A program made the translations under genes and the position numbers. The notes under the pieces are model-generated. The model had not been told where the DNA came from, searched no databases, and saw only the letters and a program-made list of their open reading frames with translations. From Methylococcaceae bacterium (lineage in GTDB: Bacteria > Pseudomonadota > Gammaproteobacteria > Methylococcales > Methylomonadaceae), in assembly GCA_050303415.1 (NCBI GenBank), contig JBNLBS010000019.1, positions 16,545-80,544 on the forward strand: a stretch of 64,000 nucleotides of DNA, written 5' to 3'. Positions 32,327-44,157 of the stretch are shown piece after piece; within the stretch, counting starts at the first letter, position 1, and every line of letters begins with the position of its first letter.

Positions 32327-32920
32327 TTAATCCATTCGATTAAGCGCTGAGCTTAATGTTTTTACTGTTTCCAATACCAGTTTACGTTGTGCTTGATCCA
32401 AGGATGAATATAAGGTCATCAGTTCGCGTATATCTTCCGGAAATGACAAGCACAATGGATCGTGCTCAACATGCTGTTCATCCATCCAGCCCTTAGGAAG
32501 TGAAAAATGACTTTCATATTTTCTCGCAATGGTTCTGGAGATGGTTTTAAACGGGTTATCAATAAATAACAAAAGTTTATCAATATCGATGTCTAAAGAG
32601 TGTACGAATTCATTTAATTTTTTTTCCTGGTCTTTGATTTCTTCATAACTATTACACAGGTTTTGATGCCGGATGGCCTGCAGATCCCTGGCATTGGGCC
32701 GAATAGGTCCGAGCCCGAACATCAGCCAGCAGGGTGAACTTTGTGTGGCTTTGGCAATTCGTAATATATCATCCGGCCCCGGGGTTGATATACCGGCTTC
32801 ATAATTACCGATTCGTGATGCGCTCCAGCCCGGTATTTGTTCCAATAGCGCAGCCTGAGTATTAAGCCCGGCCATTTTTCTAGCCATTTTTATCCGTGCC
32901 GCAATCGTTTTTTCGCTCAT
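32327..32920 (-). CDS. XRE/Cro-CI-family HTH transcriptional regulator with unrecognised ~140-aa C-terminal domain; start probably MSEKTIA at 32920
   Basis: HTH_XRE pattern IAARIKMARKMAGLNTQAALLEQIPGWSASRIGNYEAGISTPGPDDILRIAKA. Confidence 0.7.
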   Translation of the reverse strand: MSEKTIAARIKMARKMAGLNTQAALLEQIPGWSASRIGNYEAGISTPGPDDILRIAKATQSSPCWLMFGLGPIRPNARDLQAIRHQNLCNSYEEIKDQEKKLNEFVHSLDIDIDKLLLFIDNPFKTISRTIARKYESHFSLPKGWMDEQHVEHDPLCLSFPEDIRELMTLYSSLDQAQRKLVLETVKTLSSALNRMD

Positions 32921-32999
32921 AATTTTGCTTTTTAACCTTGGTGTGAACAATCAATTCATTTATTGGCACAACATTTTACAAGAAACTTGAAAAAAAATA

Positions 33000-33027
33000 T
33001 TGACAATCTTGATTTTAATTTTATAAT
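33000..33027 (+). promoter_or_regulatory. Near-consensus sigma-70 promoter TTGACA-16 nt-TATAAT with upstream A-tract
   Basis: TTGACA 33000-33005, TATAAT 33022-33027, AAAAAAAAT UP-like element 32991-32999; divergent from XRE gene. Confidence 0.55.
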
Positions 33028-33034
33028 GCCACCA

Positions 33035-33248
33035 ACATTTAATTTATTAGGATTATTCCCTGATGACTTTTAACAACGGAAAACTAAATATACGCAAGCA
33101 GCCGGCAATAGCAATGCTTTATACATTGCATGCTGTTTGTTACAGGTTGAGTTAGGTCTTCCGTTTCAGGAAGGCCGTGCAGTTGCCTTCCAACTTATTA
33201 AAGTTTCAGTAGAAACCCCGGTTGGATCTCTGCCAACCGGGGTTTTTT
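33035..33248 (+). ncRNA. Candidate small transcript (sRNA or mRNA for a 28-aa peptide MTFNNGKLNIRKQPAIAMLYTLHAVCYRLS) ending in a strong rho-independent terminator
   Basis: Consensus promoter upstream. Internal hairpins are present. Terminator AAACCCCGGTTGG-atctctg-CCAACCGGGGTTTTTTATT lies at 33213-33250. Confidence 0.3.
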
Positions 33249-33530
33249 ATTGCCCAAGGACAGGCTACCTACTTTAACCGTTAGTTCTTGAGGTAGATTT
33301 GTCAGTCAGGTTTTGGATGCACTTAACGTGACCGGTATCAGCCTGACCGCAGAATTCAGGTAACTGACATGATTGCAAAAAGCTTGTTGTTATAACTAAA
33401 CATTAATCATCGATAATCCGATGTACCGAATTGGACGGATGCTGTTAATCCAGCGGTTCAGGTTCTGTATACCTGTCCGGCGCACGATACATTTTGTTGA
33501 CTGTGTACCCGATTAATAGTGGTTCAATAA

Positions 33531-33603
33531 CTCGAGGATAGCTCAATGGGTAGAGCGGTTGACTCATAATCAACTTGTTAAGGGTTCAAGTCCCTTTCTT
33601 CGA
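33531..33603 (+). tRNA. tRNA-Met (anticodon CAT)
   Basis: Manual cloverleaf folds in full: 7-bp acceptor TCGAGGA/TCTTCGA with one G-U pair, D-arm GCTC-AATGGGTA-GAGC, anticodon stem GTTGA/TCAAC with loop CTCATAA, T-arm AAGGG-TTCAAGT-CCCTT. CCA is not encoded. Confidence 0.7.
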
Positions 33604-33606
33604 TCC

Positions 33607-33674
33607 TGGAAAAGTAGCTCTTGGTGAGCCCGGATGATAAATCCGTTTATGTAGGTTCGAATCCTACCTTTTCA
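33607..33674 (+). other. Degenerate tRNA-like element: intact acceptor, T-arm GTAGG-TTCGAAT-CCTAC, but D-loop and anticodon loop only 5 nt each; 3 nt downstream of tRNA-Met
   Basis: Manual folding: GGAAAAG...CTTTTCA acceptor with 1-72 mismatch, D GCTC-TTGGT-GAGC, AC-stem CGGAT-GATAA-ATCCG; 68 nt, too short for a canonical tRNA. Confidence 0.35.
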
Positions 33675-34005
33675 CTTTTAACCTGCAACACAGGTTTATT
33701 TTGATCTTCGGATCGTAGGGTCGGCGCCAGTCGGCGAATATGGAGTTTGTTTGACAAAGGATGTTGGAGACAACGGCGTATTGGCTTTGCATGGTGTCAG
33801 CCGGATAAAGTTCAGAACAGTTTATTGATACAGGTCCATTCGATGGGCGCGCTTGACAGGATGTCCACATCAGCAAACAGGTCTTTACTTTTTCCGCCAG
33901 ACAACATCCGCCAATAGGTCGTGGCGCCGAACCTAAATTTTTACCAATAAGGATTTAAACAATAATACTGCCTTAAAAGGCAACAAAAAGGGAATGGAGG
34001 GAACA

Positions 34006-35145
34006 ATGTTTATCAAACGATTTATCATTGCCGAAAATGAACGCGGTTTGTTTTTTCACAACCGGACTTTACAGGACATTATGGAATCCGGCGTCTACAC
34101 CTTTGTCGATTGGCGCAACCGGATTAAAGTCGAAATTTTCGACTTGAACGAACCGGTTTTTAAACACAGTCTGGAGGATGTGTTGTTAAAGCAGCACGAG
34201 GATTTATGCAAAACCTATTTCCAGGTCATCCAGCTGAATGAAAACCAAGTAGGTTTGGTCTACCGCAACGGCCTATTATCTGAGGTGTTACCGCCTTCTA
34301 CCAGAACGTTTTACTGGAAAGGTTTGATTGATATAGACGTTGAAGTCATCGACATTAAATCCGATTTTCAATTGGATGCAGACAAGACCCGGTTATTGAC
34401 CCGTGTGCGAGATGCTGCATTGGTCAGGGTTTTGGCTAACTACATCACTGTTGCCGAAGTGGCGGACCAGCATGTCGGTTTATTGATTGTCGACGGTCAG
34501 TTGATCAAGGAATTACAGCCTGGTGTCTATGCATTTTGGCGTTTCAACCGCTCGATTAAAGTCGAAATGGTCGATAAACGGGTTCAAATGATGGAAGTCT
34601 CAGGTCAGGAAATTTTGACCGGAGACAAAGTGTCATTACGAATCAATCTGTCAGTGGCCTTTCAAATACAGGATGCGGTGAAAATACGTTCAGCATTCAA
34701 GGATATGTTCGATTACTTGTACCGCGAATTGCAATTCGGTTTACGACAAGCGGTAGCCGGTAATACGTTGGATAATTTATTAGCGGAAAAAGGTTCGGCC
34801 GAACAATGTGTATTTAAATACATTTTGGAAAGGATTCAAGATTGCGGTATTCGCTTTATTACAGTCGGTATTAAAGACATTATTTTGCCGGGTGATATGA
34901 AGTCGATTTTAAACCAGTTAGTGGAGGCGGAAAAACAGGCTCAGGCCAATGTTTTAAAACGCCGCGAAGAAACCGCAGCAACCCGGTCATTGCTGAACAC
35001 TGCAAAATTGATGGATGAAAATCCAACTTTAATGCGTTTGAAAGAGCTGGAGGTTTTGGAAAAAGTCACCGGCAAAATTGACCGCATGACCGTTTTCGGC
35101 GGTTTGGAAGGTGTCTTAAAAGATACCGTTAAAATCAATGTGTAA
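34006..35145 (+). CDS. SPFH/band-7 (stomatin-prohibitin-flotillin) domain protein. Its N-terminus has two extra tandem copies of the SPFH N-terminal beta-unit. Start ATG 34006 after GGAGGG
   Basis: C-terminal LRINLSVAFQIQD...ITVGIKDIILPGDMKSILNQLVEAEKQAQANVLKRRE SPFH core is present. Three internal repeats begin ERGLFFHN..., ENQVGLVYRNG... and DQHVGLLIVDG..., each followed by G-Y-F-W and the [IV]KVE/DVEV motif. Confidence 0.7.
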   Translation: MFIKRFIIAENERGLFFHNRTLQDIMESGVYTFVDWRNRIKVEIFDLNEPVFKHSLEDVLLKQHEDLCKTYFQVIQLNENQVGLVYRNGLLSEVLPPSTRTFYWKGLIDIDVEVIDIKSDFQLDADKTRLLTRVRDAALVRVLANYITVAEVADQHVGLLIVDGQLIKELQPGVYAFWRFNRSIKVEMVDKRVQMMEVSGQEILTGDKVSLRINLSVAFQIQDAVKIRSAFKDMFDYLYRELQFGLRQAVAGNTLDNLLAEKGSAEQCVFKYILERIQDCGIRFITVGIKDIILPGDMKSILNQLVEAEKQAQANVLKRREETAATRSLLNTAKLMDENPTLMRLKELEVLEKVTGKIDRMTVFGGLEGVLKDTVKINV

Positions 35146-35260: not shown

Positions 35261-36457
35261 ATGCCTATAAAAATGAAAATGACAAAAGGCAAGGTACCGG
35301 TCAAAGTTTGGACCGAAGATATTGAATACGGTGCCATTCAGCAATTATGCAATATCGCGCAAATGCCGTTTATCCATAGTCATGTTGCGGCCATGCCTGA
35401 TGTGCATCAGGGGATTGGCGCAACCGTGGGTTCGGTGATACCGACCAAGGGCGCCATTATACCTACCGCAGTGGGTGTTGATATCGGCTGCGGAATGAAT
35501 GCGGTCAGGTTAACGCTTAAAGCTGAACAATTACCGGACACTCTAAAACCGGTGCGTAACGCCATTGAAGCGGCCGTACCTGTCGGCTTTGCCATGCATA
35601 ACAAAGATATGGCCAGACATTCGACCATTATTGCTTTGGCCGAACCATTGGGCCGATTACAGGAAAAGCATCCGGCGATCAAAAAAATGCAGAAAAAGCC
35701 ATTTCAAACCTGGGTTAGACAACTGGGTACTTTGGGTGGCGGCAACCATTTTATTGAACTGTGCCTGGATGAAAGCAACGACGTCTGGATTATGCTGCAT
35801 TCCGGCAGTCGGGGTATTGGTAATGCGATCGGACGTTACTTTATCCAGTTGGCCAAAAAAGATATGGGGCAACAACTGGGACATTTACCGGATAAGGATC
35901 TGGCCTATTTTACTGAAGGTGCACAATACTTTGAGGATTATGTCGAAGCCGTGCATTGGGCGCAGGATTATGCCATGTGGAATCGCAGGGAAATAATGCG
36001 TTCGATAGTTGATGCATTGAAAGACGTCCTGCCGCGATTTCAAGTCAGCAAGGAAGCGATTAATTGCCATCATAATTATGTTGCGCTCGAACAGCATTTC
36101 GGGGAACAGGTTTATCTGACCCGCAAAGGGGCGATCAGTGCCGGCCAAGGCGAGCTGGGTATTATTCCCGGCAGCATGGGGGCCAAGTCCTATATCGTTC
36201 GGGGTAAAGGTTGTGCCGCTTCATTTCATTCCTGCTCACATGGTGCTGGCCGGGTAATGAGTCGTTCACAGGCCAAAAAACGCTACAGTTATCGGGATGT
36301 CGAAGCGCAGACTGAAGGCATTGAATGCCGAAAAGACAGCGGCGTTATCGATGAAATTCCGGCGGCCTATAAGGATATTGATCACGTAATGGAGAACCAA
36401 TCAGACTTGGTTGAGATTGTACATACCCTGAAACAAGTCGTTTGCGTCAAAGGATAA
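35261..36457 (+). CDS. rtcB: RNA-splicing ligase RtcB (3'-phosphate/5'-hydroxyl RNA ligase)
   Basis: Conserved metal/GTP-binding residues pattern: VGVDIGCGM, GGGNHFIE, HSGSRG, CHHNY, full length 398 aa. Confidence 0.9.
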   Translation: MPIKMKMTKGKVPVKVWTEDIEYGAIQQLCNIAQMPFIHSHVAAMPDVHQGIGATVGSVIPTKGAIIPTAVGVDIGCGMNAVRLTLKAEQLPDTLKPVRNAIEAAVPVGFAMHNKDMARHSTIIALAEPLGRLQEKHPAIKKMQKKPFQTWVRQLGTLGGGNHFIELCLDESNDVWIMLHSGSRGIGNAIGRYFIQLAKKDMGQQLGHLPDKDLAYFTEGAQYFEDYVEAVHWAQDYAMWNRREIMRSIVDALKDVLPRFQVSKEAINCHHNYVALEQHFGEQVYLTRKGAISAGQGELGIIPGSMGAKSYIVRGKGCAASFHSCSHGAGRVMSRSQAKKRYSYRDVEAQTEGIECRKDSGVIDEIPAAYKDIDHVMENQSDLVEIVHTLKQVVCVKG

Positions 36458-36506
36458 GCCGGATGTTCGGTTGGGCATCCGGTTTTATTGCAACAGGAAA
36501 ATTGTT

Positions 36507-37484
36507 ATGAAACTGGAAACTATTAAAGAAATTATTGAAATCATGCCTAAAGGTAAAACCAGATTTCACTATTTTAAAGATCGCTACGCTTTAATGTTGT
36601 TATCCGATTTAATTGAAGACGGGATTAAACTTTCCGAGCTTAAGACGACACCTTGGGCAAAACTGTTGAACCGACCGCTGGTTAAAAGCTTGAGCTCCCA
36701 GTGTGGTGACGGTGTGCTTTATAAGCATGATCTGGACAGTATCTGGCCGGATTTTACCAGGCAGTTTTTACTTACATTAAGCCAATGGGGCGGAGAACGG
36801 GCAAGCTGGCAACAAACCTGCCGACATGGCTACAATCTGGTATTGCAACTGAATTTCAGCAATCAGCATCATGCCTTGTTTAACAAACTGCTAAGGCCGA
36901 TGAAACATCATAGCCTACGCAGTTGCGGGCATCCGGTTATGCAGCCGGATGAACGTGAGTTATTTCGGGAAACACTGGCCTGGGCACGTATAGATCTGGA
37001 TTTTGACCGCAATGAAGCCCTGATTGAAGAAATTCAAAACGACTGGCTTAGGAATGCGCTATGGTGGTTGAGTTATGTCAAAAGATGTCAAAAAAATCAA
37101 CGACGGTTACCCGCAAATTACTGTTTGCAGACCGACTTGGAAAAAGTCCAAAGCTATTGCGATAAAGTATTAATGCCATACCGCAAAATGTGGGATGAAG
37201 CGATGTTGGCGGCCAGCATCGATTTTATCTACAAGCAGCTGGGTATAAACGTCATTTATTATCACAGCTACGAAAGCGGCGCCTGGTTAAAGTCCATCTC
37301 ATCTACGCTGCCGCCTCGGTCTTTATATACCGATTTACCTAAGCGCTTTTGTTTTACCTGTACCGAACAGGAGCCGACTTTCCTATCTGAAGATCGGTAC
37401 TTTAGAAACCGTAAACGCAAGGGTAAACACCTAAACTATTACTGGTATAGGATGGATTTGGGAGCTGGTCATGTTACGGCCTAG
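36507..37484 (+). CDS. Hypothetical Cys/His/Trp-rich protein co-transcribed with rtcB (start probably MKLETIKEI at 36507 after AGGAAA)
   Basis: 325 aa, no recognisable motif; CGDG, CRHG, CGHP, CFTCTEQ Cys clusters; 50-nt gap from rtcB. Confidence 0.45.
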   Translation: MKLETIKEIIEIMPKGKTRFHYFKDRYALMLLSDLIEDGIKLSELKTTPWAKLLNRPLVKSLSSQCGDGVLYKHDLDSIWPDFTRQFLLTLSQWGGERASWQQTCRHGYNLVLQLNFSNQHHALFNKLLRPMKHHSLRSCGHPVMQPDERELFRETLAWARIDLDFDRNEALIEEIQNDWLRNALWWLSYVKRCQKNQRRLPANYCLQTDLEKVQSYCDKVLMPYRKMWDEAMLAASIDFIYKQLGINVIYYHSYESGAWLKSISSTLPPRSLYTDLPKRFCFTCTEQEPTFLSEDRYFRNRKRKGKHLNYYWYRMDLGAGHVTA

Positions 37485-37682
37485 GAACTATGTCGCTCGT
37501 TCACCGATGTTACGCAAAGGCGGCGTGCACGAGCGTTGTCAATCCGGTAAACGCCAACAGCAAAAACAGGATCTAAAGGGTGAACTGGACTCTTTGGCGT
37601 TGACTGATCATGACCTGGAAGAAAATCAGCTAAACCCAGATGCCAATAAAAATACCGAGGAGTTTTTTAGTTAATTAACTCA

Positions 37683-37771: not shown

Positions 37772-39469
37772 TTATATAGAGGTTCTTCTATATTGCCGGT
37801 ATTCAGGAAACCAAAAGTTTTCAGCGATAGCCTGTTTAAGTTCCTCGGCGGATATTTTTTTGGCAACCTTATCTTCCATCGCCTGCATCCCTACAGCAAA
37901 GGCAATCGTCCGGCTCAGCTTACGAATATCCTTCAAAGCGGGCAACAAATCCTGACTGTCCCCCAATACCCAGGGCGAACAATCTGCCAACGCCTTACTG
38001 GCTGCCATAAACATATTATCGGTCACATACTCCGCAGCGCAGGCCACAACACCCAAGCCGACACCCGGAAAAATATAACTATTATTGCATTGGGCAATAG
38101 CGTAAGATTGCCCCTCAAAAACAACGGGCTGAAAAGGACTGCCGGTAGCCACTATCGCATTTCCCTCTGTCCAGTTGATGACATCCTCAGGCAACACCTC
38201 AACCCGTGAAGTGGGGTTAGAAAGCGGTAAAACAATGGGTCTGGAGCAATGTTGATAGATGAACTCGATCATCTCCTGCGTAATCATTCCAGGCTGACCG
38301 GAAACGCCAATGATAATGCTGGGCTTGGCTCCTTTAACAGTATCCAGTAAATCCACTTTCGGGCTCGACATTCCCCAGTCATCTAGGATAGTCACGGGCT
38401 TGGCAAATTTTTCCTGAAAATCCTGAATTCTCTCATTTCCCTCCAGCAACAGACCCTGGCTATTACAAAGGAAAATGCGATCCAAAGCCTGCTGTTCCGA
38501 TACCCCCTCCAGTTGCATATGCGCAATAATTTGTTCGGCAATACCACAACCGGCGGAACCCGCACCGACAAACACAATGGTTTGATCTTTTAACGCTTTC
38601 TTCTGTACCCGGCAAGCGGCTAACAACGTGCCGACGGCAACAGCCGCCGTACCTTGTATATCATCATTAAAGGTACAAATATTCTGACGATATTTTTGCA
38701 GCAAAGGTGTGGCATGATGCTGGGCAAAATCTTCAAATTGAATCATGGCATGCGGCCAGCGACGCTTAACTCCAGCAATAAATTGATCTATAAACCGGTA
38801 ATATTCATCGCCGGTAATTCGCTCATGCCGCCACCCCATATATAAAGGATCACTTAGTAATTGCTGATTATTGGTACCTACGTCCAGGGTAACAGGCAGA
38901 GTATAGGCCGGACTGATACCACCGCAGGCGGAATACAATGCCAGTTTGCCGATAGGAATCCCCATACCGCCTATGCCCTGGTCGCCCAACCCCAAAATAC
39001 GTTCGCTATCAGTCACCACTATAATCTTGATTTTTTGTTTGGTCACATTTTGCAGAATATCGTCTATCTGATCACGTTCGGGGTAAGCAATAAAAATCCC
39101 CCGTTTGCGCCGATAAATTCGGGAAAACAACTGGCAGGCCAGACCAACAGTGGGTGTATAGATAACCGGCATCATTTCCGGCAGATAGGTAATAATCAAA
39201 CGAAAATACAAGGTCTCATTGGCATCCTGAATATTACGCAGATAAATGTGCTTATCCAGATCATTATTAAACTGGGAAAACTGTTGATAAGCACGCTCGA
39301 CTTGCTGCTCAATGGTTTCAACAACTTCCGGCAGCAAACCTTGCAAATTGAACGTCTGCCGTTCCTCCTGACTGAATGCGCAATCTTTGTTTAGCAGCGA
39401 AGTTTCTAATAAAGACTGCCCGGAATAATGAATGTATATAGGGCGTTTTTGATGATCTTCACTATTCAT
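37772..39469 (-). CDS. maeA: NAD-dependent malic enzyme; start ATG 39467-39469 (MNSEDHQ) after AAGGA
   Basis: 565 aa, malic-enzyme N-terminal and NAD-binding domains ([11 protein letters not shown] Rossmann motif). Confidence 0.8.
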
Positions 39470-39909
39470 AGTAATTCCTTTATAAACTGACTGTTGCTGA
39501 TTCAAACCATTAATCGAGTTAATAATACAGTGTATTTTTACTCAATTTCCTCTTATTGCCTGAAAAAAGATTAAAGCGCAAAAACTCTTGGATTGATAAA
39601 CAGGTTTTTCTGAAACTTTCTTGAACCCGGACAAGAACGATAGTAGCAATTTTTACCCGTATGAACACTAGATTAGTTTTTTATCATTGCTGATTCGGGC
39701 GGAACAGCATGCTTAATACTGAATTCACATTAATAAATTTCGACCCTCCTAAATCGTTCCCTGTTTATCGACTGACCTACAATCTTAAATGTGTTCACCA
39801 AGCGAAATGTCTATGAGCTAAAACTCCAGCCAAAACCAGGGGGTTAAGGGAGAAAAAGACCGGTTTAAACTACCGCAAAGTTAAATAGTTTTGCTCAGGC
39901 TTTTGAATC

Positions 39910-40275
39910 TCACCTATATTTAAGTGATTTTAAAGCAGCTGCATATTTTTTTTTATTAAACCCTTTTAGAACTTTTCCATTGATAACGGCTAAAGGTATT
40001 CCGCTGTAACCGGGCGCTATTTCTTTTTTACGTGCAGCAGCATCCCAATCCTCTTCAATATCATATTTATTATATGAAATACCGTTGGCATCCAGATAAG
40101 CAATGGCCTTCCGACAATAAGGACACCAGCTGGTTACATAAATATCAACTTGAGCTTGGGAATCAGTTTCAGAGTAACTTCCGCTAGAACCGGAATCCCA
40201 TTCAATCACGTCAATATCTGCATAACAGGGTTGTAATGCCATAATAAAAACAACTAATAACTTCACAATATTCAT
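39910..40275 (-). CDS. Secreted glutaredoxin-like thioredoxin-fold protein
   Basis: Signal peptide + CPYC active site (VTSWCPYCRKA). Confidence 0.55.
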   Translation of the reverse strand: MNIVKLLVVFIMALQPCYADIDVIEWDSGSSGSYSETDSQAQVDIYVTSWCPYCRKAIAYLDANGISYNKYDIEEDWDAAARKKEIAPGYSGIPLAVINGKVLKGFNKKKYAAALKSLKYR

Positions 40276-40373
40276 TTTAAAATGCCCTTAATGAGTTATA
40301 GCGTCGTCGCCTGATTACCAACATTTGTATTGCTCTGACAAAAGAGCATAAAAGAAGCACGGCTTGTCAGCAA

Positions 40374-42374
40374 TCAGATTTCGCTCAGCCAGTAAAAACC
40401 GAATGACGGAATAACCAAGGTATTCTTAAAAATATCCGGTTCCTGTCCGGTATATAAGTCGATCAGATGTCCATATTGGGCTTTGGCCCAGTCACCTATC
40501 TCGTCCAGATTTAGATGTTGGGGTTTATTACTGAAATTAGCGATGACCAATACCCGCTCACTTGGTTTACTGGGTTGATAACGCCCTATTATAAATAAGT
40601 GGGGATTTTTAACTTCAATCAACTCACGGTTATTAAAATCGGCAAAGACTTCTATTTCCTTGCGTACCGCAATCATTCTTTTTAATGCCATGAATATTTC
40701 ATATTCAACGGTTCCTGTAGAATGCCTTAGCTCAGCTTTTTCCCAGTCAATGATCGGTCTATGCACCCAGCGTGAATCATCGGCTTTATTGGGGTCATTC
40801 AGATAACTACTGTCATTTATTGTGCCTAATTCATCACCATAGTAAAGTAACGGAATACCGCCGAAAGATAAAATCATTCCGTGCAACAACAGTATAATTT
40901 TGACCGCATCTGCTGTTGCCTTTTCATCCCCCGTTTCCAAAGCATATTGCAAGCCGACCAAAGATGCCAATGAACCGGAAATACGCGCATCCCCGGTTTT
41001 TTCATTCTGGCTGAAAGGCAGCCCTCTGGCGTGGGAATCATCAAATTTGCCGGTGTAATAATCAATCAGGAACTTTCGATGGGAAAACGGTTCGTACCCT
41101 GCCTGCACAATGTCTCTATCATCGAATCCCAGACCGATATCATCATGACAGCGAACATAGTTCAACCAGGTTGCCCGCTCAAGTTTAACCGGCAGACTTT
41201 TAATGCCCCGATTGAGAAGCTGGGTGTTTTTAGTGGCCACAGCATCCCATAATAAAGCCATAAACGTTGCATTATAGGCAATCTCACACTCCTTGGCGAT
41301 AACCGCATCTTCACCAAAATATTTAATGACTTCCACCGGGGCAACGATAGCTTCGGCAATAAAAACCACGCCCGGTGCTGTTACCTGACAGCAGTCTTTC
41401 ATTAATTGCAGAATTAAATGAGCATCCCGCTCATTCTGACAGGTGCTGCCAATTTTTTTTCCTAAAAAAGCGACGGCATCAAGCCGTAATATATCAGCGC
41501 CGTGATTTGCCCAATACAGCAGTACATCGAGCATTTCTATAAAAACAGTAGGATTACTGTAATTCAAGTCCCATTGATAATTGTTAAAAACCGTCATCAC
41601 CCAACGCTTCATGGTATTGTCCCAGGTAAAATTGCCCGGGGCATGTTCCGGAAATACTTCAGGCATGTTTTGCTCAAACATATCGGGGATATTCCGGTTT
41701 TTAAAGGTATAAAAATAATTCCGGTATTTTTTCTCACCTGCGCGTGCTTTTTGCGCCCATTCATGTTCATCTGAGGTATGGTTAACCACCACATCCAGAA
41801 CCAGTAGAATTTCTCTCTGGCGCATCTCAGACGTCAACTGCTGTAAATCGTCTAAGTTGCCGGCACGCTCATCTATTTTCCTGAAGTCACTGACTGCATA
41901 TCCGCCATCACTATTGCCTTCCGGACAGCTCATGATCGGCATAATATGAATCAGGTTTACACCCAGTTCTTGAAAATAATGTAAATGCTCTTTAACGCCA
42001 TTAAGGTTGCCGGCAAAACCGTTACAATATAAAGCCATGCCAACCCATTTTTGCGATAGAAACCAGTTATAGTCCTCCTCTCTGTCAAGATCGAGCTGTT
42101 TTAAATAATCGGGGCGTTTAATGTATTGACGCGCCATCGTTTCCACAAGAGCCAGGGTTTGTTGTTCAAAATCATCCCTATCCCCGTAAAGTCGTTGGAA
42201 TAGTGAATGAATCGCATAAAAATTGGCTCCCAGTCGGGTATAGAAATGGCGTAAGTCCTGTTTGGAAATTTCAGGTTTTATTTGATTAAGAATTTTGTTT
42301 AACAGTGTGTGCGAAACCTGTTCGTACATAATCCATCCTGTCACCGGTGCAAAGAAAAGAGAAGTGATAAACAC
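40374..42374 (-). CDS. ams: Amylosucrase (GH13 sucrose glucosyltransferase)
   Basis: The protein aligns along its full length with Neisseria amylosucrase, with matches at YFQELG, MPIMSCPEG, SDGGYAVSDFR, HTSDEHEWAQ and QWDLNYSNP. GH13 region ILRLDAVAF is present. It neighbours sps, spp and fruK. Confidence 0.8.
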   Translation of the reverse strand: MFITSLFFAPVTGWIMYEQVSHTLLNKILNQIKPEISKQDLRHFYTRLGANFYAIHSLFQRLYGDRDDFEQQTLALVETMARQYIKRPDYLKQLDLDREEDYNWFLSQKWVGMALYCNGFAGNLNGVKEHLHYFQELGVNLIHIMPIMSCPEGNSDGGYAVSDFRKIDERAGNLDDLQQLTSEMRQREILLVLDVVVNHTSDEHEWAQKARAGEKKYRNYFYTFKNRNIPDMFEQNMPEVFPEHAPGNFTWDNTMKRWVMTVFNNYQWDLNYSNPTVFIEMLDVLLYWANHGADILRLDAVAFLGKKIGSTCQNERDAHLILQLMKDCCQVTAPGVVFIAEAIVAPVEVIKYFGEDAVIAKECEIAYNATFMALLWDAVATKNTQLLNRGIKSLPVKLERATWLNYVRCHDDIGLGFDDRDIVQAGYEPFSHRKFLIDYYTGKFDDSHARGLPFSQNEKTGDARISGSLASLVGLQYALETGDEKATADAVKIILLLHGMILSFGGIPLLYYGDELGTINDSSYLNDPNKADDSRWVHRPIIDWEKAELRHSTGTVEYEIFMALKRMIAVRKEIEVFADFNNRELIEVKNPHLFIIGRYQPSKPSERVLVIANFSNKPQHLNLDEIGDWAKAQYGHLIDLYTGQEPDIFKNTLVIPSFGFYWLSEI

Positions 42375-42427
42375 TTTGACTTTTAGACTACCAGTTTAAA
42401 GCAGGGCAAGTCGAATAAAAAAACTCG

Positions 42428-43303
42428 TCAAAACTTCAGCTCATGATAAAAATCAACTGTCGCAGGCGTTGCACCGCGTAAACCAACAATCTTGCCGGCA
42501 AATTGCTGGGCTGCAGTCAGGGTGTCGGTAATTGACCATGCATGCAGTAAACCATGAATAAAAACCGCACTGAATGCATCTCCCGCACCGACGGTATCAA
42601 CGACGTTTTTAACGGTTTCCGGTTGGCTGTAGTGAAATTCCCCGGCCTCAGTTCGCAGTAACACGCCCTGCTCGCCCTGAGTGACAATCAATTGCTCGAT
42701 GCCAAATTGCTGCTGAAGATCTGTCATTGCCTTTTTAATATCGCCGTCTGAAAAACCTAAAAGCTGTAATTCAGCCTGATTTAATTTGACCCAACGAGCC
42801 TGCCCCAGGCACCGGTAAACATCTTCTTTTTGCCACCAGGGACTGCGTAAATTCACATCCAAAAATACGGAAAATTGTGAATTTTCCCTAAGTCGGTTAA
42901 ATGCCGCATTCGAAACGGCATTACGCAATCCCAGAGTGCCATGATACAAAATAGAGTCTGAAGCCAAAGGCTCAAGCTTGTCTGCATCTATGAAATCATA
43001 GGCACAATCCGGTGTAATAGTGTAATGCGGTTCATCATCTGTAAAACTAACCTCAACCTGCCCCGTCGGATACTTTAAATTTCGTTGCACGAAGCCCGTA
43101 TCCAGTCCCCATTCATCCATTGCCAGCAAAATGTGTTGCGCCATCTCATCATCCCCGACAGCTGAGATAAAGCTAGGCTTGTCGCCTAAAGCCTGTAGAT
43201 GCCAGGCAACATTAAAAGGAGCACCGCCCAGGACTTTTTCACCGCTTGGGAAACAGTCAAATAATACTTCGCCAAAGATATAAATTTTTTTATTGTTCAT
43301 CAT
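42428..43303 (-). CDS. fruK: Fructokinase (PfkB/ROK-less ribokinase family); start MMNNKKIY at 43303 after GAGAGG
   Basis: GGAPFNVAWHL N-motif, DTVGAGDAFSAVFIHGLL C-motif; sucrose cluster context. Confidence 0.7.
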   Translation of the reverse strand: MMNNKKIYIFGEVLFDCFPSGEKVLGGAPFNVAWHLQALGDKPSFISAVGDDEMAQHILLAMDEWGLDTGFVQRNLKYPTGQVEVSFTDDEPHYTITPDCAYDFIDADKLEPLASDSILYHGTLGLRNAVSNAAFNRLRENSQFSVFLDVNLRSPWWQKEDVYRCLGQARWVKLNQAELQLLGFSDGDIKKAMTDLQQQFGIEQLIVTQGEQGVLLRTEAGEFHYSQPETVKNVVDTVGAGDAFSAVFIHGLLHAWSITDTLTAAQQFAGKIVGLRGATPATVDFYHELKF

Positions 43304-43314
43304 GAAGCCTCTCT

Positions 43315-44157
43315 TTATTGCAGTTGACTGCGAAATTCGGGCATAAAATGCCATACGCCTTCCAAGACGCCTGCCGCGTAATTCCCATTCATTGTTAAAT
43401 ATTGGGCTTTGGCAAGATAAAGCCGGTCTTCAAGATTGTGTTGTTTGGCAAGTTTACATGCCATTTGTTTTACTTCATCGGTTGCATTTGCGACCAATAC
43501 CGATGGAATCTCGCTACTGAGTACCGGTAAATCATTACCGCTATCACCGGCAAAAATAACCTCCTTCGTGTCATAACCCAATTGCTGATATAAAAATTCG
43601 ATTGCATGTAGTTTGGTCGCGTTTTTCGGCAACACATCCAACAGTCCTATACCCTTGGGCTCATCTATACTCCAGATTAAACTGGCATCAACACCAACTT
43701 CATCCAAACAACGCTGCATCTGAGCAATAACATTATCCTTATTAACTTGTAACGGTAAGTAATAACTTAACTTATAGGTATTTTGTTTACTGACTTCCTG
43801 CAAGTTTAAGTTCTTTATATGGCGGAATAACTGTTTGATCTGTTCGTGACTTTTGCCTTTCCAGTCTTTGGCAATTTCTTCATTCCAACTCAGCAATTCG
43901 AGCCAATGCTGATTTTGAAATTGATAAATATTGGTTCCTACATCGGTAATCAGAAAATCTGGTTCTGGTAATGCATAATTTTTAATCGCCTGCTTGACCA
44001 GCGCCAGATGTCTTCCGGTTACATAGACCAATGTTACTTCCGGCAATGCACAGAAGTCAGAAAATCGTTGTCGGGCATCCAGCGACTCCGGCTGCTTTCC
44101 ATTGGGAATGACCGTTCTATCCATGTCGGAGCAGAGAAGTAATCTTGACTGATTCAT
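43315..44157 (-). CDS. spp: Sucrose-phosphate phosphatase (HAD superfamily)
   Basis: LLCSDMDRTV HAD motif I, ~280 aa, immediately downstream of sps. Confidence 0.8.
   Translation of the reverse strand: MNQSRLLLCSDMDRTVIPNGKQPESLDARQRFSDFCALPEVTLVYVTGRHLALVKQAIKNYALPEPDFLITDVGTNIYQFQNQHWLELLSWNEEIAKDWKGKSHEQIKQLFRHIKNLNLQEVSKQNTYKLSYYLPLQVNKDNVIAQMQRCLDEVGVDASLIWSIDEPKGIGLLDVLPKNATKLHAIEFLYQQLGYDTKEVIFAGDSGNDLPVLSSEIPSVLVANATDEVKQMACKLAKQHNLEDRLYLAKAQYLTMNGNYAAGVLEGVWHFMPEFRSQLQ

Follow-up and report, generated by a model that had tools for sequence, protein, structure and literature searches.

We report a large, unnamed family of bacterial proteins, carrying no annotation, whose genes accompany those of the RNA ligase RtcB and of ribosome-rescue factors. 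Gene context and fold make it, on balance, somewhat probable that its members are accessory subunits of RtcB-centred rescue-and-repair modules for the translation apparatus (rRNA, tRNA). The member studied here, called X below, is encoded in a stretch of 64,000 nucleotides from a bacterium of the Methylococcaceae, which is referred to as the window. The subunit is probably enzymatic, because it carries an invariant cluster of charged residues. Since a GNAT-like family lies beside RtcB and ribosome-rescue genes in many bacteria, X is probably an undescribed component of the machinery by which damaged ribosomes and tRNAs are repaired.

The operon of X

In the window X belongs to an operon which is a minimal RtcB–Band-7–b7a-tRNA repair system. 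Its order is as follows: a divergent HTH gene, a promoter, two tRNA-like genes, then the genes of an SPFH protein, of RtcB, of X and of a small protein, the latter being called the small partner.

32327..32950, minus strand: HTH_3/DicA-like regulator (PF01381, E = 4e-6; NF007257 DicA, E = 2.5e-10)
33000..33027, plus strand: sigma-70 promoter-like site, TTGACA-16-TATAAT, with 12/12 consensus matches, facing the operon
33532..33606, plus strand: tRNA gene, CAU anticodon (ARAGORN; Rfam tRNA, 68.6 bits)
33608..33675, plus strand: second, degenerate tRNA-like element (Rfam tRNA, 31.4 bits; gathering score 29)
33994..35145, plus strand: SPFH/Band-7 (slipin-like) protein (PF01145, E = 3.4e-24), 115 nt before rtcB
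35261..36457, plus strand: RtcB 3'-phosphate/5'-OH RNA ligase, 398 aa (PF01139, E = 4e-131)
36453..36489, plus strand: stable RNA hairpin then UUUUAUU, in the rtcB–X spacer (MFE -20.6 kcal/mol)
36507..37484, plus strand: gene of X, 325 aa, with its ATG at 36507 and its stop ending at 37484
37471..37674, plus strand: ORF of the small partner (67 aa; 14-nt overlap with the end of X), also called by an independent gene caller

RtcB–Band-7 systems with a "band 7-associated tRNA" are credited to Burroughs and Aravind (2016) as quoted in bioRxiv 10.1101/312249. All three parts of such a system (tRNA-like gene, SPFH/Band-7 and RtcB) are present in one co-directional unit of the window, in which X and the small partner are extra conserved genes. 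Unlike that system, X is also found without Band-7 or tRNA, in operons of the order RbfA-like gene, rtcB, X and small partner.

Around this operon we fetched 80 related X loci and clustered their flanking ORFs; as these loci are the closest relatives, among at least 569 genomes, and are phylogenetically clustered, the counts and Fisher tests given below overstate independence. Homologues of the HTH protein (about 50% identity) occupy the same divergent position in 10 of the related loci, and this protein, for which the public gene call (L084) is a 186-aa version ending near 32887, is the probable repressor of the operon. The support for the promoter consists of its position and its perfection, because promoter-like sites are no more numerous in the region than in shuffles. 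The tRNA at 33532-33606 is the sole tRNA called by ARAGORN in the 64-kb window; the degenerate element follows it after 1 nt and receives no ARAGORN call. Together with the tRNAs found directly upstream of SPFH in other loci, the tRNA of the window forms one family (74% mean column identity) in which the anticodons differ, and a tRNA or tRNA-like gene lies 300-450 nt upstream of SPFH in 14 of the 15 evaluable related loci. The SPFH protein itself has homologues with 55-58% identity in 16 related loci. As for the RtcB of the window, it scores below the NCBIfam cutoffs of both PRK09588 (184 against 407) and TIGR03073 (152.8 against 271.8), scores by which it is placed outside the clade of E. coli RtcB1 as well as outside the PrfH-coupled RtcB2 clade. 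The hairpin between rtcB and X has z = -3.4, with 2 of 200 shuffles folding equally well; it could be a partial terminator, an attenuator or a processing site.

A preliminary description of this DNA, made from the sequence alone, had proposed a 325-aa ORF about 50 nt 3' of rtcB, and both points are borne out. The same gene is predicted by an independent gene caller on the public contig (L084), the homologues share the start Met of X, and the upstream gene is indeed that of RtcB; the spacer from its stop (36457) to the ATG of X measures 49 nt, with an AGGA 9 nt 5' of this ATG. X is basic (pI 9.1; family median pI 9.2, net charge +10). It had also been described as rich in Cys, His and Trp with many Tyr, and rightly so: Cys, Trp, Tyr and His make up 2.5%, 3.4%, 5.2% and 3.4% of its residues, which corresponds to the 97th, 97th, 90th and 87th percentiles among the ORFs of the window of at least 200 aa. 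The four Cys clusters pointed out at the same time fared otherwise as a family feature. In our two alignments, A1 (47 sequences) and the divergent A3 (41 sequences, 34% mean column identity), C282 is the sole conserved Cys among the 8 of X (46/47 and 34/41 sequences). The clusters are therefore a peculiarity of the window sequence and not a trait of the family. Binding of Zn or Fe-S through them was rejected, as 7 of the 8 Cys are not conserved.

A large family without annotation

We found 1,791 homologues of X in a collection of 5.8 billion proteins, all of them "hypothetical" wherever they are named. When 1.84 billion representatives were searched exhaustively with a profile, 845 clusters at 50% identity were obtained, 476 of them at E <= 1e-30. 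Nearly all members are single-domain proteins of 300-335 aa. They are encoded in at least 569 species-level genomes, mostly of sulfur-oxidising and methanotrophic Gammaproteobacteria, with further hosts among the Desulfobacterota, Alphaproteobacteria, Aquificaceae and Planctomycetota.

No motif had been recognised by eye, and database searches agree: X has no match at E <= 1 among the families of Pfam and NCBIfam, none in PADLOC or PHROG, and none among PDB sequences at E <= 10, whether the single sequence or the profile is used. There is no tblastn match in plasmid and phage collections, and full-text searches, the scope of which did not extend to Burroughs and Aravind (2016, NAR), returned no paper describing X. 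One significant match was obtained in BFVD, to an unnamed viral protein of 1,008 aa (A0A516LVQ9, E = 2e-4).

A divergent subfamily is extended at its N-terminus by a fused basic segment of 80-90 aa and is encoded by a stand-alone gene in varied contexts, none of the five sampled having any linkage to RtcB. The idea that this extension (P0187, P0217, P0248, P0260; 'KKGGMGGRLGRSNMSH') is a Rosetta-stone fusion of the small partner is unsupported: the HMM of the small family scores 6.4 bits on it against 5.7 for shuffles, so that homology is not demonstrable. Genes for tRNA anticodon-loop modification (TcdA-like, TrmO, TruA) were seen near the divergent subfamily, an anecdotal observation because it concerns only 2 of the 5 contexts.

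X travels with RtcB and with ribosome-rescue factors

The preliminary description took linkage to rtcB as the mark of a functional partner. Counting as adjacent two co-directional genes separated by at most 400 nt, we found RtcB adjacent to X in 43 of the 80 loci, upstream of it in 41, with a median gap of 101 nt. When the count is restricted to the 59 loci which have at least 1.5 kb on both sides, RtcB is present in 38 and adjacent in 33. At least one of RtcB, SPFH, small partner and HTH occurs in 64 of the 80 loci, and in about a quarter of the loci X is alone, with none of the partners. Three different RtcB clades are paired with X: the 398-aa clade of the window, a 469-aa clade (Woeseiaceae) and the PrfH-coupled RtcB2. 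The proposal of a functional partner is thus strengthened. Assignment to a housekeeping family and absence of linkage had been named beforehand as the outcome that would count against it; we obtained no housekeeping assignment and a conserved linkage.

Several other genes recur at the X loci. An RbfA-like gene (about 150 aa, PF02033, above the gathering score) stands directly upstream of RtcB in 18 of them. Besides the SPFH/Band-7 genes (16 loci) and the divergent HTH_3/DicA-like regulators (10 loci) already mentioned, we found an HNH endonuclease in 10, RtcA in 5 and a mini-protein with a SEC-C motif in 5. X thus co-occurs with 30S-directed (RbfA-like) and with tRNA-like components.

Two further arrangements involve release factors. 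Four loci of Desulfobacterota (L030, L031, L053, L060) have the order SEC-C–RtcB2–PrfH–X, where TIGR03073 (cutoff 272 bits) gives the RtcB2 of L030 and L060 scores of 473 and 461, and TIGR03072 (cutoff 167 bits) gives the PrfH upstream of X a score of 244. Five loci of Gammaproteobacteria (L035, L042, L055, L059, L067) carry an ArfB, identified by its equivalog profile (NF006718, 143 bits, cutoff 100), which overlaps X or starts 10 nt after it; in these five loci ArfB is translationally coupled to X. To sum up the immediate surroundings, the gene of X shows translational coupling with the gene of a small, basic, helical protein, for which ArfB is substituted in some loci; in others it directly follows the gene of PrfH.

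A GNAT-like fold without the acetyl-CoA loop

The predicted fold of X is GNAT-like (acyltransferase-type) and strongly derived. The alpha/beta architecture of a GNAT, with a mixed sheet, a helix after beta4 and a helix after beta5, is present in it, and the fold searches gave only GNATs. Of the original interpretation the functional partnership with RtcB is supported, and the Cys clusters and the nuclease module are not. Because the fold searches gave only GNATs, we also rejected a PD-(D/E)xK nuclease, a candidate which had come from the stretch "RIDLDF...ALIEEIQSDW". The likeness to GNATs lies at the level of the fold. Foldseek against the PDB was not significant (best E = 0.19), and the sequence-profile similarity which the GNAT superfamily would lead one to expect is lacking, since no GNAT profile of Pfam or NCBIfam detects any member of the X family. 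X is also about twice the size of a GNAT; it contains large insertions (residues 130-155 and 197-222), and its N-terminus is elaborated by some 80 aa.

The pattern of conservation is informative. The 41-sequence alignment contains 23 invariant columns: Y22, Q103, R106, V112, H142, P143, T156, W159, R161, D163, L172, E174, E175, Q177, D179, W229, G258, K262, P270, Y274, L277, P278 and P290. Almost invariant are N116, H121, W180, R182, Y217, E231, H253 and S272. The invariant residues are mostly polar and cluster, according to the predicted secondary structure, on the beta-hairpin 156-177, on the start of the next helix, and on the end of strand 249-253 together with the helix 255-261. On and around the strands lie R161, D163, E174, E175, Q177 and D179, then H253, G258 and K262, then Q103, R106 and H142. 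In GNAT enzymes those strands and helices frame the active-site cleft. From the predicted secondary structure we infer that the invariant residues of X sit in or around a cleft of this type, and X looks catalytically constrained.

What X lacks is the pyrophosphate loop of motif A (Q/R-x-x-G-x-G/A, at the beta4/alpha3 junction), which is conserved at no column of the alignments: no column of A3 has the pattern in 3 or more sequences, and in A1 it occurs at two columns, in 3-4 of the 47 sequences. At the junction one finds instead E174-E175-(I/V)-Q177-(N/S/T)-D179-W180-x-R182, where Trp and Arg replace the small residues. Because the acetyl-CoA loop is missing, we regard X as a strongly derived GNAT-like protein, for which binding of acetyl-CoA in the standard mode appears unlikely from the alignments.

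This bears directly on the possibility that X is a canonical acetyl-CoA-dependent GNAT, which would put a protective mark on RNA or on a ribosomal protein after repair, or else acetylate aminoacyl-tRNA and so pause translation. A precedent for the first activity exists, as Hen1 methylation protects after repair in Pnkp-Hen1 systems. Given the altered loop, the silence of all GNAT profiles and the non-significant Foldseek result, we consider this explanation improbable.

The same features open another route. Since its GNAT likeness is at the level of the fold only, with no profile match and no motif A, X could be a non-catalytic adaptor or specificity factor, namely a catalytically dead GNAT-like scaffold that links RtcB and a rescue factor with the damaged ribosome or RNA. 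The lost cofactor loop, the basic charge and the tight translational coupling to interchangeable partners are all in agreement with such a scaffold. Burroughs and Aravind are said to have counted scaffold or cofactor proteins among the RNA-repair systems in 2016. Against it stands the persistence, at 34% mean column identity, of R161, D163, E174, E175, Q177, D179, H142, H253, K262, Q103 and R106. This unusually large set of invariant charged and polar residues is what one typically sees in an active site and would seldom expect of a pure scaffold, and we judge the dead scaffold unlikely.

The small partner

The small partner belongs to a family of 1,096 proteins, typically of about 70 aa, none of which is named and for which the 24 members searched gave no Pfam match. 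An N-terminal motif is invariant in this family: R-N-x-x-A-x-x-P-L-L-R-K-G-G-x-H-x-K-S…R. The N-terminal 35 aa have a pI of about 12 and the C-terminal tail is acidic; in the AlphaFold prediction the N-terminus is unstructured and residues 24-53 form one long helix. In a profile recount over 81 loci, the family was found in 50, directly downstream of X in 43. The remaining 31 loci have X without it, and in 9 of these ArfB or PrfH is present instead. The small partner and PrfH/ArfB are mutually exclusive (0/9 against 50/72; Fisher p = 8e-5, an optimistic value as the loci are phylogenetically clustered), and the small basic family appears to substitute for a rescue factor.

The small partner resembles ArfA, ArfT and BrfA in being small and in combining a strongly basic segment with a helix, and it fills the slot held elsewhere by ArfB or PrfH. 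This likeness is an analogy, homology being not detectable. Descent from ArfA was rejected, as the family profile scores 0.8 bits on validated ArfA (PF03889) and 30 of 200 shuffles do equally well; so was descent from ribosomal protein L34, with scores no better than those of shuffles. Small positively charged helical proteins of RFH-RtcB operons were proposed to be ArfB-like "tails" (Burroughs and Aravind, PMC6514570), and by analogy the small partner fits this proposal.

A basic ORF with an acidic tail that overlaps the gene of a GNAT-like protein also calls to mind a toxin-antitoxin system of the GNAT-toxin type (TacT/AtaT-like), made of X and the small partner and merely located near RtcB in a mobile island. 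The association of X with horizontally spread tRNA arrays and HNH genes would suit such a pair. Several observations weigh on the other side: there is no toxin or antitoxin match in PADLOC, Pfam or NCBIfam, the only hit being a non-significant one to AbiEii (E = 0.063); GNAT toxins are half as large as X and have a CoA motif which X lacks; the supposed antitoxin is missing, or exchanged for ArfB or PrfH, in the loci counted above; the plasmid and phage collections contain no X; and X keeps its order and orientation with respect to RtcB. We therefore hold a toxin-antitoxin pair to be very improbable.

Relation to known systems

A close parallel is the RtcB2-PrfH module, which was shown experimentally to rescue and then religate ribosomes damaged by colicin E3 (PMC9304027). 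It is described there as a two-gene operon, and other papers deal with the module as well (PMC9223846, PMC13166195). The logic shared with our loci is the combination of a rescue factor of the peptidyl-tRNA-hydrolase type with an RtcB ligase. In the four loci of Desulfobacterota X directly follows a bona fide RtcB2-PrfH pair, of which it would be a third component. The window differs from the module in that its RtcB is not RtcB2, being below the cutoff of TIGR03073, and in that it contains no PrfH.

A second parallel is provided by the L-arrays of Anabaena (PMC8421152) and by its translational-stress regulon under TrcR (PMC10272220), which bring together a tRNA array, rtcB, HNH, slipin and GNAT genes. 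The arrays are induced by translational stress along with the rtcB, HNH, slipin and GNAT genes, TrcR being the repressor (PMC10272220). In three of our loci (L005, L011, L036) the operon of X contains 18-20 tRNA genes, among which the small partner, a 58-aa ORF and HNH are embedded; by analogy, these operons look like the horizontally spread "L-arrays" of PMC8421152, and the operon of the window is a reduced form of the same module. Across the X loci one recovers the co-directional tRNA array, HNH, rtcB, slipin/SPFH, a GNAT-type gene and a divergent repressor. The window itself departs from Anabaena, for it keeps only two tRNA-like genes and its regulator is HTH_3/DicA-like; identity of this regulator with TrcR is ruled out, TrcR being a ribbon-helix-helix protein. 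The likeness is thus one of parts lists, X itself having no demonstrated cyanobacterial homologue.

The Anabaena regulon includes stress-induced GNATs, one of them in a BMAA-export operon (PMC10272220). X might likewise modify a small molecule, such as an antibiotic or toxin which targets translation or a metabolite, and be co-regulated with translational stress without acting on RNA or ribosomes. GNAT-fold enzymes mostly do act on small molecules, aminoglycosides included. Such a role accords poorly with the translational coupling of X to ArfB or to a small basic protein and with its place directly after PrfH, with the fact that no transporter or resistance gene is recurrent near X in the related loci, and with the basic character of a protein devoid of the CoA motif. 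We regard it as very unlikely.

Proposed role of X

If X is an accessory subunit of RtcB-centred modules, the following course can be imagined. The small partner, ArfB or PrfH would bring X to ribosomes which have stalled or been damaged by nucleases, or to the tRNAs of such ribosomes, the small partner being perhaps a probe of the ribosome resembling ArfA or the tail of ArfB. There X would perform an acyl-transfer-type step, or a related one, without canonically bound acetyl-CoA. Plausible donors or substrates are the ester of an aminoacyl- or peptidyl-tRNA and the end of an RNA. This step would clear, prepare or protect the substrate before RtcB reseals the RNA. It would thus be distinct both from the release of the peptide, by PrfH, by ArfB or by a factor which the small protein recruits, and from the sealing by RtcB.

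In a narrower version of this role, to which we attach a low probability, X and the small partner form a new rescue/repair pair in which X is a CoA-independent enzyme of GNAT fold acting on the tRNA ester or on an RNA end. The small protein, interchangeable with ArfB or PrfH, would probe a damaged or empty decoding centre or the mRNA channel, and the chemistry of X could be, for example, an aminoacyl- or peptidyl-tRNA-dependent transfer or hydrolysis. If such a pair exists, the known RtcB2-PrfH pathway of "release then religate" would gain a third enzymatic step through X.

Repair of ribosomes and tRNAs by RtcB is a recently opened field, RtcB2-PrfH having been worked out in 2022. Into this field enters a widespread unannotated family which travels with three RtcB clades and with both GGQ rescue factors (PrfH and ArfB), as well as with an RbfA-like 30S-binding factor and with Band-7/b7a-tRNA and tRNA-array systems. 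The family of X is new; it varies the GNAT fold within a type of system that was known before, and X is a candidate third component of ribosome/tRNA repair. This provides candidates which can be tested, namely the residues E174/E175, H253 and K262 and, as partners, ribosomes, RtcB and ArfB. Should X be an adaptor, it may account for the way in which the various RtcBs reach their substrates; if it is an enzyme, it would carry out a further, so far unrecognised chemical step in the repair of the damaged translation machinery.

Surroundings and non-coding stretches of the module

The repair module of the window, which includes RtcB and X (the 325-aa GNAT-like protein encoded directly downstream of rtcB), looks like an insertion amid unrelated chromosomal genes. 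A gene for a methyl-accepting chemotaxis protein is found upstream of the module, and the genes found downstream of it are of the housekeeping type.

37772-44157 (minus strand): housekeeping-type genes, namely those for malic enzyme, a glutaredoxin-like protein and a sucrose-metabolism cluster (amylosucrase-like alpha-amylase, PfkB fructokinase, sucrose-6-phosphate phosphatase)

The following elements were located in the operon itself:

33028-33531: leader
33532-33606: tRNA
33608-33675: degenerate second tRNA-like element
36453-36489: hairpin in the spacer between rtcB and X

The leader extends over about 500 nt from the perfect-consensus promoter to the first tRNA-like gene; it contains no conserved ORF, and the only Rfam match within it, His_leader (33142-33250, E = 0.45), is non-significant. 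The hairpin is stable (-20.6 kcal/mol, z = -3.4), is followed by UUUUAUU and lies only about 20 nt upstream of the start codon of X. One possible role is that of a partial terminator or attenuator, which would set the ratio of RtcB to X expression.

Unusual features of the tRNA are its U1-A72 pair and U73; its CCA is not encoded, and the degenerate element starts 1 nt past it. When the tRNAs lying directly upstream of SPFH genes are aligned (alignment A4), their body is conserved, with a mean column identity of 74%, and their anticodons vary (CAT, GAT, TAG, TGT, CAA and TCT).

Relatives of X

We searched structural libraries with the model of X by Foldseek. The sole significant match in any of them was to part of an unnamed viral protein of 1,008 aa, the BFVD entry A0A516LVQ9_1 (E = 2e-4 over 274 aligned columns). 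This part may represent an X-like domain of a large polyvalent protein from a phage.

A divergent subfamily of X (P0187, P0217, P0248 and P0260; loci L081-L083 and L088-L090) carries a fused N-terminal extension of 80-90 aa, in which a separate motif is conserved: K-K-G-G-M-G-G-R-L-G-R-S-N-M-S-H … A-R-K-x-R-R … acidic … K-rich. RtcB is never adjacent to it in these loci. A TcdA-like ThiF gene shares an overlap with the stop of the divergent X gene in L081; in L088 TruA and TrmO are encoded nearby.

tRNA arrays in related operons

Three related loci have an array of 18-20 co-directional tRNA genes in one operon with HNH, SPFH, X and RtcB:

L005:2452-6412
L011:475-4954
L036:4008-6037

These arrays look like proteobacterial counterparts of the translational stress-induced cyanobacterial "L-arrays". 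Between their tRNAs one finds the small basic ORF (the partner family of X, about 70 aa) and a conserved 58-aa ORF, MNNIELNKFQRL…NPKLDELLDLIRPYA, for which the family search gave no significant match. The latter lies either within a tRNA array or in the interval separating the small ORF from X:

L001:7657-7833
L005:3877-4053
L011:2267-2443
L017:4681-4857

Genes beside RtcB

A SEC-C-motif mini-protein of about 60-90 aa is encoded in several related loci:

L030:2209-2472
L060:5560-5814
L053:6322-6615
L011:8964-9152
L017:9013-9195

In Desulfobacterota it precedes RtcB2-PrfH-X; in two gammaproteobacterial loci it is found between X and RtcB. It may be equivalent to the accessory Zn-ribbon proteins described near RFH-RtcB operons.

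In Woeseiaceae, RtcB of a third clade (469 aa) comes after an HNH gene, and X follows it within 30 nt; its best NCBIfam match is an intein-containing RtcB-related model, the intein itself being absent:

L040:1277-2686
L071:6565-7974
L078:1597-3006

Finally, in 18 loci (L013, L014, L016, L019, L023-L025, L029, L039, L041, L043, L046, L047, L049, L051, L063, L065 and L068) the gene directly preceding RtcB, and often overlapping it, codes for an RbfA-like paralogue (PF02033, 36.6 bits) whose N-terminus is extended by about 45 aa. This position suggests that the RtcB clade concerned is directed to the 30S subunit.
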